Part shown: positions 1 through 8,036 of the stretch, piece by piece
Layout of the letters: each line of letters opens with the position of its first letter
Position numbering within the stretch: position 1 is the stretch's first letter
Source: a virus
Taxonomy: Duplodnaviria > Heunggongvirae > Uroviricota > Caudoviricetes
IMG/VR virus record: IMGVR_UViG_2703718851_000009
Direction: 5' to 3' (one strand)
DNA length: 8,036 bases
Translations under genes and position numbers: made by a program
Notes under the pieces: generated by a model
The model's input: the letters and a program-made list of their open reading frames with translations, nothing else
The model's database searches: none
What the model was told of the DNA's origin: nothing

Positions 1-1164
1 TTACGCCTTCTTTATATCCTCCATAATTCCACAGTGGGACATATTTGGGACATTATCACCAAAAATGTCGTCTATTTTCCTTGCATGCTCTGTCAAATGA
101 TTAGGCGCAAGGTGAGCATACCTACGAACCATTTCTATGGACTCCCATCCGCCCATTTCCTGAAGCACAGATAATGGGACGCCTGACTGGATCAGCCAGC
201 TTGCCCAGGTGTGTCTGAGGTCATGGAAACGGAAATCTTCAATTCCTGCACGACGACAAGCTGATAGCCATGATGTCTTGCTGTCGATGCGCATCTTCCT
301 GACCGCAGGCGTTGATGTTCCATCTGCTCGCTTAGCCGCCTTGGTATGTACAAACACCCATTTGTGATGCTTGCCTATTTGATCACGCAACACTTTACAG
401 GCGGTATCGTTCAGCGCCACACCAATGGCGCGGTTTGATTTGCTCTCTTCTGGGTTCACCCAGGCAACTCGTCGCTGCATGTCGATTTGTTGCCATTCCA
501 GATTTATGATGTTCGACTTTCTCAGACCAGTTGCCAGCGCAAACTTGACGACAGATTTCAGTGGTTCGGGGCACTCATCAATAAGGCGTTTTGCTTCCTC
601 CTTTTCCAGCCATCTGACGCGCTTGTTTCTGACCGCTGGTATCTTGATGACAGGCGCTTTTTCCAGCCACTTCCAGTCGCGTTCTGCAGCACGGAGAATG
701 GCCTTTATCATGGCAAGATGCTTTGCCTTTGTCTGAGTTGATACTGGCTTTGGTTCATAAACAGGCGGTTCTTTACCTTTCCTGATGGCGGCCTGAACTT
801 TCTGTTTCCATATTTCTTTCGTCTTTCTGTTATGCATTCTGCTTACAGCAGAGTAAATCTTTGCCTCCGAGATATCTTTAAGCCTTATACCCTCAAAATG
901 TTCAAGCCAGAACTCAATCCGGCTTTTATCTGAATCGAGAGATTTTTTATCAGCTTTTTCTTCAAGCCATCTTAGGCAGGCCTCTTCAAAAGTGACATCA
1001 GGTAAATCCCCTAGCTTTTCTACTCGCCAGAGTTCTGCTTTTCGCTTGTCGTGCAACTCCTGAGCTTGCCGCTTGTCCTTTGTGCCAAGAGATTCCTTAA
1101 TTCGTTTCCCGCCCGGGAGCGAATACGAGGCATACCATATTTCATTTCTGCGGAAGAGTGACAT
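1..1164 (-). CDS. int: Phage tyrosine integrase (P22/lambda Int family), 387 aa
   Basis: Full-length ORF; the N-terminus [21 protein letters not shown] and C-terminal [39 protein letters not shown] (catalytic R..HxxR..Y region) match, from memory, the P22-type integrase family. GAGGAA Shine-Dalgarno lies 6 nt upstream of the ATG at 1164. The stop codon is at window positions 1-3, so attL must lie left of the window. Confidence 0.95.
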
Positions 1165-5728: not shown

Positions 5729-6355
5729 TTAGAGTTCGTATTGAACTCCTTTGACTACACCAATGATAAGGCAATTACCATTGATAGGGATGTTGGGATA
5801 CCGAGGATTTAATGGCACTAAAAACTTTTGAGGGCCATCGATGACTAATTTTTTTACTGTAGCTTCGTTTGTTCCATCAAGTCGAGCGATGACTATTTTT
5901 CCATGACGAGGTTCTGCATCTGGATCTACAATCACTGTTGCGCCTTCTGGTATTGTTGGGAGGCCATTAGGGTTAGTCATGGAGTCACCTTTAACCTCTA
6001 ATGCAAATGAGTTATCACCAACCTTTAATGATGTATCTACCCACTTGTCCACTTCACTAAACACTTCTGCTGCCCTGCACTCAGTAAACTGCCCAGCCTG
6101 AACCCACGATATTACAGGAACTCTGCGCATGTTTGTGACGAGTTTGCCTTCAAACTCAGCACCATAAAGAATGTAATCTATTGACGTATTGAAGAACTTC
6201 GCTAATTTCGAAAGTGCCTCCCCGCCAGGGGTATTGATGTCTTTCTCCCAGTACCCCACAGCAACGTCGCTTACTCCACAAAATTTACCCAATTCTTTCT
6301 GGGACGTTCTGGTAACTCTTCTCAGAGCTTTTATACGCTGACCAACCGTTTCCAT
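5729..6355 (-). CDS. cI: CI/C2-type prophage repressor: N-terminal XRE-family HTH plus C-terminal LexA-like S24 autopeptidase domain, 208 aa
   Basis: HTH region QKELGKFCGVSDVAVGYWE, Ala-Gly autocleavage site in ISWVQAGQF, Ser nucleophile in GDSM and Lys in TVKKLV. Strong resemblance to the P22 C2 repressor family (ISWVSAGQW, QGDSM, NPxYP, INGNC motifs) as recalled. Transcribed divergently from cro. Confidence 0.95.
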   Translation of the reverse strand: METVGQRIKALRRVTRTSQKELGKFCGVSDVAVGYWEKDINTPGGEALSKLAKFFNTSIDYILYGAEFEGKLVTNMRRVPVISWVQAGQFTECRAAEVFSEVDKWVDTSLKVGDNSFALEVKGDSMTNPNGLPTIPEGATVIVDPDAEPRHGKIVIARLDGTNEATVKKLVIDGPQKFLVPLNPRYPNIPINGNCLIIGVVKGVQYEL

Positions 6356-6452: not shown

Positions 6453-6653
6453 ATGACAACTGACGATATCGAAAGCTACTTCGGCAGTATTGAGAAAGTT
6501 GCTGCTTTTTTCGGCATAACAACTGAAGCCGTTTATCAGTGGCGAAACCGTCCGGGCCAGTTAATTCCAAAAGGACGTGCAGCAGAAGCTGCATATAGAA
6601 CTTGCGGACGGTTGCCATTTAAACCTGAGCTTTATGAAAAATCTAATGGATAA
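6453..6653 (+). CDS. cro: Cro-like HTH regulator (YdaS/Cro family), 66 aa
   Basis: Small HTH protein (FGITTEAVYQWRNR) divergent from cI, with a C-terminal ...KPELY motif typical of YdaS-type Cro proteins. Good Shine-Dalgarno. Confidence 0.85.
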   Translation: MTTDDIESYFGSIEKVAAFFGITTEAVYQWRNRPGQLIPKGRAAEAAYRTCGRLPFKPELYEKSNG

Positions 6654-7242
6654 ATCGATTAACAGAAACCACAGAACGATGAGGCTAACCGTGGGTAAGC
6701 ATCACTGGAAAGTAGAAAAACAGCCTGAGTGGTACGTGAAAGCTGTCAGAAAAACTATCGCAAAGTTGCCGGGTGGTTACGCTGAAGCAGCTGACTGGCT
6801 GGATGTAACAGAGAACGCATTATTTAACCGCCTTCGTGCCGATGGCGATCAGATTTTCCCGCTGGGATGGGCAATGATTTTGCAACGTGCTGGTGGAACT
6901 CACTTCATTGCTGACGCAGTGGCGCAGTCTGCAAATGGCGTCTTTGTGTCTCTTCCTGACGTCGAGGATGTGGACAACGCCGATATCAACCAACGCCTGC
7001 TGGAAGTCATTGAACAGATCGGCAGTTATTCAAAACAGATTCGTTCAGCAATTGAAGACGGTGTAGTGGAACCGCATGAGAAGACAGCAATTAACGATGA
7101 GCTGTACCTCTCAATTTCGAAGCTGCAGGAGCATGCAGCACTGGTCTACAAAATCTTTTGCGTTTCAGAAAGTAGTGACGCCCGCGAGTGTGCAGCTCCG
7201 GGCGCCGTGGCGTGTCGTGACTGTGGAGAAACTAACGCATGA
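6646..7242 (+). CDS. CII-like / YdaT-family regulatory protein, about 198 aa
   Basis: Follows cro on the same strand. Resemblance to the YdaT family (CII functional analogue in Rac-type prophages) is recalled, not searched. The ORF-track start at 6577 overlaps cro by 77 nt; the ATG at 6646 overlaps only the cro stop. No clear Shine-Dalgarno, so the start is uncertain (alternatives 6634, 6679). Confidence 0.65.
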
Positions 7243-7577
7243 ACAGTTTAACAACACACTACCGTCGCTCGCAACTGATTGCGCTTCCTGTACCGGGTGG
7301 AAAAGCGAAGGTGGAGTATTGCTATGCAGTAAATGTACCAGGTGACAGGGAAATTGTAACCCACAGCTTTGCAGAGTGGGCTGTGGGTGATTTCAACCGG
7401 CAGAAGGAGACAGTCCTTTGCGACAAGTTAACCGCTGGTTCAAAGATCACTACGGAGTGCCCGTCAGAGTCATTCGTTGGGAGCCGGAAACACAACGTGT
7501 TATCTACCTCCGCGAAGGCTATGAGCATGAGTGCTTCAGCCCGCTCGAACAGTTTCGTCGTAAATTCAGGGAAATAG
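7239..7577 (+). CDS. Hypothetical protein, 112 aa as an intact ORF, but possibly a frame-disrupted gene (see findings)
   Basis: ATG overlaps the YdaT-like stop (ATGA). The N-terminal ~57 codons look coding. The 3' part in this frame is Ser-rich and uses rare codons (tta, tca, tct), whereas a different frame at 7391-7597 uses E. coli-preferred codons and translates to a protein-like sequence. Confidence 0.35.
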
Positions 7578-7586
7578 AGGTCGGTC

Positions 7587-8036
7587 ATGAGCACTAAATT
7601 AACCGGCTATGTATGGGATGGTTGCGCAGCGTCAGGCATGAAATTATCCAGCGTGGCAATTATGGCCCGCCTGGCTGATTTCAGTAATGACGAAGGTGTG
7701 TGCTGGCCATCGATTGAAACCATTGCACGCCAGATTGGCGCGGGGATGAGTACCGTCAGAACGGCTATCGCACGGCTGGAAGCAGAAGGCTGGTTAACGC
7801 GTAAGGCGCGTCGCCAGGGTAACCGCAATGCGTCGAATGTTTATCAGCTTAACGTTGCGAAGCTTCAGGCAGCGGCATTTTCTCAACTGTCAGATTCTGA
7901 CCCGTCAAAATCTGACGCATCAAAATCTGACCCGTCAAAATTTGATGCGTCGAAATCTGGCAAAAAAGCGGGTTTTCACCCGTCAGAATCTGGCGGGGAT
8001 CCGTCAGTAAAATCAAAACATGATCCGTCAGATAAA
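7587..8036 (+). CDS. Replication initiator (lambda O / P22 gp18-like), 5' partial, runs off the window end
   Basis: Not in the ORF track because it has no stop inside the window. ATG at 7587 with GAGG 6 nt upstream; open for all 150 codons to 8036. Translation MSTKLTGYVWDGCAASGMKLSSVAIMARLADFSNDEGVCWPSIETIARQIGAGMSTVRTAIARLEAEGWLTRK looks like a winged-helix N-terminal domain, followed by SDPSK-type pentapeptide repeats encoded by the iterons. Confidence 0.7.
   Translation, partial: MSTKLTGYVWDGCAASGMKLSSVAIMARLADFSNDEGVCWPSIETIARQIGAGMSTVRTAIARLEAEGWLTRKARRQGNRNASNVYQLNVAKLQAAAFSQLSDSDPSKSDASKSDPSKFDASKSGKKAGFHPSESGGDPSVKSKHDPSDK
7889..8036 (+). repeat. Iteron-like tandem repeats (about 15-bp period, each with internal dyad such as TCAGAttCTGA or GTCAaaatcTGAC): putative phage origin inside the initiator gene
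   Basis: At least five consecutive ~15-bp units at 7889-7960 and three more degenerate CCGTCAGA-type copies up to 8036. Lambda ori likewise sits inside the O coding sequence. Confidence 0.6.

Follow-up and report, generated by a model that had tools for sequence, protein, structure and literature searches.

Out-of-frame overlap of ymfM and a DUF4222 gene, both probably maintained, upstream of the replication gene of lambdoid prophages

INTRODUCTION

In bacteriophage lambda, Rz1 lies wholly inside Rz, out of frame and with its own start codon, and the products of the two genes act together in lysis. Chains of genes linked by translation termination and reinitiation occur in phage early operons. 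To our knowledge, no open reading frame (ORF) has been described that stays open over the whole length of an embedded gene so as to arrive at the start codon beyond it. Here, we analyze a locus that may be of this kind, namely, positions 7239 to 7597 of an 8,036-nucleotide (nt) stretch of IMG/VR virus record IMGVR_UViG_2703718851_000009 (hereafter, the window), in which the 112-codon ymfM (gene A) overlaps a gene of the DUF4222 family (gene B) next to an O-like replication gene (rep). On the basis of its ORF map and of DNA searches, the window is assigned to a lambdoid prophage of Escherichia coli (e14/SfII/SfIV type). Our comparisons make it quite likely that A and B are both real genes of the early-right operon, that they overlap out of frame, and that both are maintained.

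The arrangement resembles Rz/Rz1 in that a longer lambdoid gene contains, out of frame, a small gene that has its own start, and both frames are kept open. It differs in that B runs 20 nt past the stop of A, the overlapped part of A lacks sequence constraint, and the modules recombine independently and are found apart. It also resembles the coupling chains of phage early operons, with an ATGA at the ymfL/A junction, the A stop 9 nt before the ATG of rep, and the B stop 8 nt after it (i.e., an overlap of 11 nt between B and rep, given the rep ATG at 7587).

The ymfM gene of the K-12 e14 prophage (b1148) is the same gene as that of the window and occupies the same position between ymfL and an O-like replication gene. 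It is the K-12 reference annotation for the cell division inhibitor behind the decades-old SfiC phenotype. YmfM has been reported to cause filamentation, to block Z-ring formation, and to account for SfiC, and the insert of the pBAD24 ymfM construct is described as "the open reading frame" (bioRxiv 10.1101/2020.11.19.390815). Another report defines a library clone, D1-8E, as ymfL(142-185), ymfM, and ymfN(1-92) (PMC3614548). YmfM is treated in the literature as a simple 112-amino-acid (aa) protein, whereas in our comparisons conservation is limited to a module of about 58 residues, beyond which the ORF shares its DNA with a better-conserved gene.

The only studied DUF4222 protein found in our literature search is RgdR (ECs1581; 99 aa) of prophage CP-933C of enterohemorrhagic E. 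coli O157. This protein activates LEE1 and type III secretion, represses motility, binds DNA nonspecifically, and has an RGD motif at residues 20 to 22, and its relatives are all prophage-borne (PMC3378721). Gene B shares with RgdR the DUF4222 domain and the prophage location; compared by length and motif only, it falls outside the RgdR subfamily (59 aa versus ~99 aa, and no RGD).

RESULTS AND DISCUSSION

Gene B is a DUF4222 gene with its own start

The first-pass annotation, made from the letters of the window, reported a 112-aa ORF (7239 to 7577), an alternate frame from about 7391 to 7597 that reads like a protein, a TTG at 7418 preceded by AAGGAG (7404 to 7409; 8-nt spacer), and an alternate-frame stop overlapping the rep ATG. 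All of these features are present, and the rep ATG is placed at 7587 by RefSeq in an identical locus. Two explanations were offered there: a 59-aa TTG-initiated gene embedded in the ORF, or an ancestral ~119-aa gene with a frameshift mutation or a sequencing error. The former agrees exactly with RefSeq coding sequence (CDS) WP_001250269.1 ("DUF4222 domain-containing protein"), the coordinates of which are identical to those of gene B.

The protein-like character of the alternate frame goes far beyond chance. Its product matches Pfam family PF13973 (DUF4222; E = 8.6e-19; 67.3 bits versus a cutoff of 27), with residues 2 to 53 aligned to positions 3 to 52 of the 53-position model, and PHROG 1343 (E = 2e-34). 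More than 130 homologues (59 to 70 aa) occur across the Enterobacteriaceae in phage immunity/replication regions. In the lineages examined, gene B starts with TTG, ATG, or GTG and has its own GGAG-type Shine-Dalgarno (SD) sequence, mostly GGAG or GGAGG at a distance comparable to that in the window. The TTG at 7418 is the first start codon of the open B frame and is preceded by nine open codons. AlphaFold predicts a small beta-barrel (predicted local distance difference test [pLDDT] score, 84), for which fold searches returned generic small-beta-barrel matches only. A sequence search of solved structures yielded nothing for YmfM or for the gene B product.

A 6-bp hairpin is predicted at 7403 to 7419, in which the SD region of B (GAAGGA) pairs with UCCUUU at the start codon; its z-score is only -1.9. 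RNAalifold found no consensus pairs at the A/B junction in eight lineages.

Amino acid selection acts in the B frame and on the N-terminal module of ymfM

Compared with K-12 b1148 (annotated as "cell division inhibitor YmfM"), the product of gene A has 3 differing residues out of 112. Its membership in the YmfM family is indicated by PHROG 1170 (E = 4.6e-70; positions 1 to 112) and by the retained synteny ymfL-ymfM-rep. The 63-residue family phrog_20047 is also matched, over residues 1 to 63 only, and no Pfam or NCBIfam model matched the 112-aa product.

Substitution rates were compared by the Nei-Gojobori (NG86) method. The N-terminal module of A (A-N) has a ratio of nonsynonymous to synonymous substitutions (dN/dS) of 0.21 to 0.47 against 11 relatives. 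The dN/dS of B is 0.04 to 0.3, with synonymous sites near saturation (proportion of synonymous differences [pS], 0.57 to 0.81), while the same columns read in the frame of the A tail give an apparent dN/dS of 1 to 7.

Polymorphism was analyzed in a separate set of 77 near-identical loci (46 haplotypes), which was used for this purpose only. Since the loci were picked by identity in A residues 1 to 65, their dearth of A-N replacements is uninformative about constraint on A-N. Between 7418 and 7597, 18 sites are variable, of which 14 fall at B third codon positions and 13 are synonymous in B. All of these 13 polymorphisms are nonsynonymous in the A tail, including common G/E/V, S/N, and A/V swaps. 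Synonymous variation in B is not reduced by the overlap (13 sites versus 12 in the nonoverlapped half). Amino acid selection acts in the B frame, where it is strongly purifying, and the amino acid sequence of the A tail is unconstrained.

The AlphaFold model of YmfM has an N-terminal part of three strands and two helices (pLDDT, 56 to 74) and falls below 50 for residues 68 to 112; it was too poor for a fold search. The tail is predicted to be disordered, and A-N is, as judged from these comparisons, the only part of A under selection at the amino acid level. The tail is rich in Ser, Thr, and Ala in all lineages. The first-pass annotation considered the 112-aa ORF to look coding only in its 5' third; at the amino acid level this holds for about the first half, while the openness of the ORF is conserved beyond it. 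That annotation had also set intact homologues of the full frame-0 protein against homologues of the alternative-frame peptide. Relatives contain both, i.e., intact frame-0 ORFs of 111 to 117 codons, including in diverged relatives, and abundant alternative-frame homologues.

Position 7388 is a synonymous third position of ymfM and the first letter of the TGA that bounds the B frame on its 5' side. It is T in 62 of the 77 loci and otherwise G (13 loci), A (1 locus), or C (1 locus). Where the TGA is lost, the B frame opens further upstream, so gene callers give 69- to 73-aa versions (P0095 and P0096). In 1 of the 77 viral-contig loci, a G-to-A change at 7437 converts Trp7 of the DUF4222 protein to a stop, with the ymfM frame still open (Gly to Ser).

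The long ymfM frame appears to be kept open by selection

Wherever an A-type ORF abuts gene B, its frame (+1 relative to B) contains no stop across at least 50 B codons. This holds for E. coli, Phytobacter, and Pantoea, for three types of Klebsiella phage, for five lineages from metagenomes or genomes, and for the phages of the SfV/ST64B/Stx group. To estimate the expected number of stops, each B protein was back-translated with synonymous codons resampled according to the codon usage of the window. All eight diverged lineages have zero stops in the +1 frame, against an expectation of 1.7 to 2.4 each (probability of no stop, 0.04 to 0.12 per lineage), and the joint probability of a stop-free frame in the eight is 5e-10. 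Two over-conservative nulls, both of which are themselves shaped by the effect under test, gave 1e-4 (pooled B codon usage) and 8e-5 (permutation of the synonymous codons of each gene).

Codon choice in B follows the same pattern. The first-pass annotation described the codons of the alternate frame as E. coli preferred; the Val and Leu codons, at least, are unusual in their bias toward C or T at the third position. Valine before a codon starting with A is encoded by GTC or GTT in 32 of 32 cases, and leucine before A is encoded by CTY (Y, pyrimidine) in 6 of 6. Overall, 87% of the Val codons and 74% of the Leu codons of overlapped B genes end in Y, compared with 51% and 23% in nonoverlapped B genes of the phiNP type (Fisher's exact test, P = 6e-4 and 9e-4, respectively) and with 53% and 38% in the other genes of the window. 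The phiNP-type genes, which have ordinary Val and Leu codons, carry 1 to 6 stops in the +1 frame, near expectation, indicating that the null model is calibrated.

On this evidence, the long ORF appears to be kept open by selection, in which case neither gene model alone is adequate. The locus would then illustrate, in nature, how selection can keep a frame open while leaving its sequence free.

Two other causes of openness were considered. Shared ancestry was rejected because the synonymous sites of B are saturated and GTC and GTT alternate at the sites at risk. An intrinsic property of DUF4222 genes was largely rejected on the basis of the phiNP-type controls; four stop-free exceptions, which are taken up below, stand.

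The N-terminal modules and gene B are separable

A-N occurs alone as genes of 59 to 78 aa in Providencia, Hafnia, Citrobacter, Atlantibacter (75 aa), and Entomohabitans (78 aa). In Providencia phage PSTRCR_117lys (63 aa) and Hafnia phage yong2 (59 aa), the stop of the stand-alone gene overlaps the start of the next gene, and in Citrobacter phiNP the gene order is A-N, rha, B, rep. Gene B, in turn, is found joined to three N-terminal modules that are unrelated to one another, namely, A1 (YmfM-N), A2 (MNSLTANNRLSQQ...), and A3 (MNSVNRFRPAKQ...). The two-frame layout persists even where identity in B is as low as 38%. Fusions of A-N with DUF4222 among database proteins (P0030, P0052, P0059, and P0065) are rare, have four different junctions, and are consistent with sporadic indel variants. 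Among relatives, two frames are kept and continuous proteins over both halves, as expected of the intact form of a pseudogene, are rare. A contig scan of genomes contributed six of the loci compared.

Hafnia phage yong2 (L096) also contains an unannotated DUF4222 ORF (2192 to 2377), which is read in the -1 frame and lies within the 5' end of a CDS annotated as "Ash family protein" (2196 onwards). The sequence downstream of this ORF resembles the IsrK/C4 region of SfV-type phages.

Coupling of gene A to rep is a possible reason for the open frame

The A stop lies within ~10 nt of the replication-gene ATG in eight diverged lineages. In the E. coli, Klebsiella, Phytobacter, and Pantoea lineages, as well as in loci L097 and L098, this stop is a TAG or TAA located 6 to 9 nt upstream of the rep ATG. 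In three loci, the B stop forms an ATGA with the rep start, and the A stop follows 5 to 8 nt further on. The nearness of stops to starts by which termination-reinitiation is recognized is seen in the window in the ATGA at 7239 to 7242, in the TAG at 7575 to 7577 relative to the ATG at 7587, and in the TAA at 7595 to 7597, and it is kept in 12 loci. The ymfL/A/rep junctions look like a chain of termination-reinitiation sites.

Our preferred, though still tentative, explanation of the openness is the delivery of ribosomes to rep, i.e., translational coupling of A to the rep start, which we favor over a functional tail. Ribosomes entering at ymfL/ymfM would be carried across B in the open frame of A, would terminate inside the ribosome-binding site of rep, and could reinitiate there. 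The coupled chain would extend from ymfL through A to rep, and B, initiated on its own, would be a passenger. A bolder and more doubtful version is a "ribosome relay over passenger gene" that serves whichever essential gene follows (rep or rha/ant), conserved among lambdoid phages and operating also over IsrK/C4 in the SfV/ST64B/Stx-type phages; its corollary is that SfiC may be the 58-residue module or the DUF4222 protein rather than the 112-aa YmfM. The overlap may reveal how lambdoid early operons hand ribosomes across inserted modules.

Several observations weigh against selection for openness or against coupling as its cause. Four B homologues that have no A-type ORF reading into them (L112, Yersinia YeP2, Providencia PSTCR8lys, and Hafnia yong2) also lack +1 stops, and the independence of the lineages is argued from the saturation of synonymous sites rather than from a phylogenetic model. 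An SD-like AGAGG belongs to rep itself, and coupling through A is not obviously needed, since the B stop already overlaps the rep start. In SfV-type phages, moreover, the A-type frame continues for 500 to 835 nt past B, over the IsrK and C4 RNA genes and into rha/ant, so a simple model of termination at the next start does not describe these phages.

The SfV-type frames run from the ymfL stop without a stop for 278 to 404 codons, in SfV (L119, 1352 to 2188), ST64B (L120, 1307 to 2515), Stx2a_WGPS2 (L121, 1352 to 2503), and 2H10 (L122). The frame crosses the DUF4222 gene (1501 to 1680), the IsrK small RNA (1712 to 1788), and the C4 antisense RNA (1813 to 1900) before entering rha/antirepressor in frame. 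The records annotate one "transcriptional regulator/antirepressor" over the whole frame and leave DUF4222 unannotated.

In K-12 itself (L125; NC_000913.3, 2171 to 3501), ymfM is followed by a replication gene that is a chimera or pseudogene (ymfN = oweE + aaaE), so coupling of ymfM or DUF4222 to an intact rep cannot operate in e14.

Alternative explanations

The foremost alternative is that the tail of YmfM is a functional disordered segment (e.g., a degradation tag or an interaction region) of which the length or composition matters, i.e., true dual coding. We consider this unlikely, although it has a real chance of being correct. Stop avoidance is as real under this explanation as under coupling, the Ser/Thr/Ala-rich composition and the predicted disorder recur, and overexpression of YmfM is reported to block Z-ring formation (bioRxiv 10.1101/2020.11.19.390815). 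The SfV-type frame, which extends far beyond the next start, suits a frame that must stay open better than one that must stop at the next ATG. However, amino acid constraint is absent from the tail, in which the swaps described above are common, and the synonymous variation of B is not depressed. Stand-alone A genes extend only 5 to 20 residues past the conserved module, and the composition of the tail is what a +1 reading of B yields anyway.

The second alternative, which we consider improbable and which is in effect the model of RefSeq and the NCBI Prokaryotic Genome Annotation Pipeline (PGAP), is that only DUF4222 and a short A are meaningful, the 112-codon length being a chance extension into B that brings no selective advantage. 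PGAP omits ymfM in all of the genomes listed, the tail has no protein-level conservation, a single lineage would be stop-free by chance in 4 to 12% of cases, and some nonoverlapped B genes are stop-free too. Nevertheless, accident is an improbable source of eight open lineages out of eight despite saturated synonymous sites. It also has to contend with a Val/Leu codon bias that is specific to overlapped B genes, with an A stop that always adjoins the following start codon, and with three different N-terminal modules that all read through B.

A programmed -1 ribosomal frameshift near 7391 to 7417, yielding an A-N::DUF4222 fusion of ~119 aa, is very improbable. The geometry would permit it, given that B lies in the -1 frame of A and is open for nine codons before its start, and fusion-type proteins (P0059 and P0065) exist in databases. 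These, however, are among the rare indel variants with four junctions, and no slippery heptamer of the X XXY YYZ type occurs in 7391 to 7420, as the first-pass annotation had noted. There is no conserved RNA structure at the junction, where the local hairpin has the low z-score given above, and in each lineage B retains a conserved SD and start codon that belong to it alone. The upstream stop of the B frame is polymorphic, at 1 to 25 codons before the start, and L098 leaves one codon.

The other option of the first-pass annotation, a single ancestral gene interrupted by a frameshift mutation or by a sequencing error, accounts for two half-length coding signals in adjacent frames but is scarcely credible, given an identical or near-identical layout in 1,932 of the 5,426 complete genomes of E. 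coli as well as in independent isolates of phages, its retention in distantly related B genes, and two halves that are unrelated modules found apart elsewhere. The sequence comparisons indicate that no frameshift mutation, sequencing error, or recoding is involved at 7239 to 7597.

Annotation of the locus and attribution of SfiC

The two genes are annotated in conflicting ways. RefSeq/PGAP annotates gene B and omits the 112-codon ORF in all of the genomes listed, including PGAP-annotated MG1655 assemblies, while the curated K-12 reference (NC_000913.3) annotates ymfM (b1148; 112 aa) and no DUF4222 ORF. Among phages, the long ORF is the one annotated in SfII, whereas Klebsiella phage ST147-VIM1phi7.2 and Pantoea phage AH07 have the short ORF. 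As both ORFs appear to be maintained, each annotation is incomplete. In practice, the NCBI pipeline drops ymfM in thousands of genomes in favor of the overlapping DUF4222 gene.

The overlap also bears on SfiC. As described, pBAD-ymfM and D1-8E both include the SD, the start, and at least 52 of the 59 codons of B, and the ymfM deletion removes B too. No mutant specific to the ymfM or the DUF4222 frame is described in the available parts of the published ymfM work (bioRxiv 10.1101/2020.11.19.390815; PMC3614548), and our literature search found no papers with ribosome-profiling evidence on ymfM. Because the published clones and deletion all involve both genes, division inhibition cannot be assigned to the 112-residue YmfM, to the 58-aa module, or to DUF4222. 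The new points are the apparent maintenance of the long ORF alongside B and the ambiguity in the attribution of SfiC; the embedded DUF4222 gene was already in RefSeq.

Other features of the window

The coordinates of the features are given in Table 1. The ymfL product matches NCBIfam NF041471 (YmfL; E = 1.6e-49) and Pfam PF06892 (Phage_CP76; E = 1.2e-13), and the TGA of ymfL (7240 to 7242) overlaps the ATG of ymfM in the ATGA mentioned above. The replication gene matches Pfam PF13730 (E = 1.3e-11). A copy of the locus with 100% identity is present in E. coli AMSHJX01. The locus was matched in 2,701 of the 5,426 complete E. coli genomes, with at least 80% of the 601-nt query covered in 1,932 of them, and the two-frame arrangement is also present in many phages, including independent phage isolates.

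TABLE 1 Positions of genes and sequence elements in the window
Feature	Coordinates	Strand	Basis or remark
Integrase	1-1164	-	ORF map
LexA/CI-like repressor	5729-6355	-	ORF map
cro	6453-6653		ORF map
ymfL, CII-like regulator gene	6691-7242	+	RefSeq annotation at 100% identical locus
Gene A (ymfM), 112 codons, ATG 7239 to TAG 7575-7577	7239-7577	+	ORF list
A-N, conserved N-terminal module of ymfM (~aa 1-58)	7239-7412	+	dN/dS, phrog_20047, stand-alone occurrence
Antisense ORF, 90 codons	7322-7594	-	ORF list; in codon register with gene B
TGA closing B frame upstream of B start	7388-7390	+	Polymorphic; synonymous third position of ymfM
SD sequence AAGGAG of gene B	7404-7409	+	8-nt spacer to TTG; read from sequence
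Gene B (DUF4222), 59 codons, TTG 7418 to TAA 7595-7597	7418-7597	+	Pfam, PHROG, RefSeq, dN/dS
ymfM tail, codons 61-112 (+1 frame of gene B)	7419-7577	+	Polymorphism, dN/dS, pLDDT, stop count
ymfM stop TAG (7575-7577) overlapping rep SD-like AGAGG (7576-7580)	7575-7580	+	9 nt upstream of rep ATG, in frame with rep
O-like replication gene (HTH_36), ATG 7587	7587-8036, continues beyond window	+	RefSeq at identical locus

The core of A-N (residues ~14 to 52) matched repeat units of very long proteins with Listeria-Bacteroides repeats (Flg_new) and DUF7507 in an exhaustive protein search (e.g., P0213; 13 stretches; E = 5e-25), probably through a shared beta-hairpin motif summed over the repeats. 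Homology to these proteins was not used, as the matches were judged to be sums over repeats.

The antisense ORF was rejected as a gene. It appears to be open mostly because TTA, CTA, and TCA codons are rare and to be a by-product of the codon content of B; the codon-aligned antisense frame is open in 7 of the 8 lineages, and its sequence tracks the free third positions of B. The GenBank record of Klebsiella phage ST101-KPC2phi6.3 (L090) annotates its counterpart, a minus-strand "hypothetical protein" (1335 to 1622) over the DUF4222 gene, and neither of the plus-strand genes.

Within the replication gene, tandem near-repeats of the type CCGTCAAAATCTGAC at 7880 to 8036 resemble origin iterons. 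Similar repeats appear as spurious ORFs in phiNP-type loci (L105 and L115).

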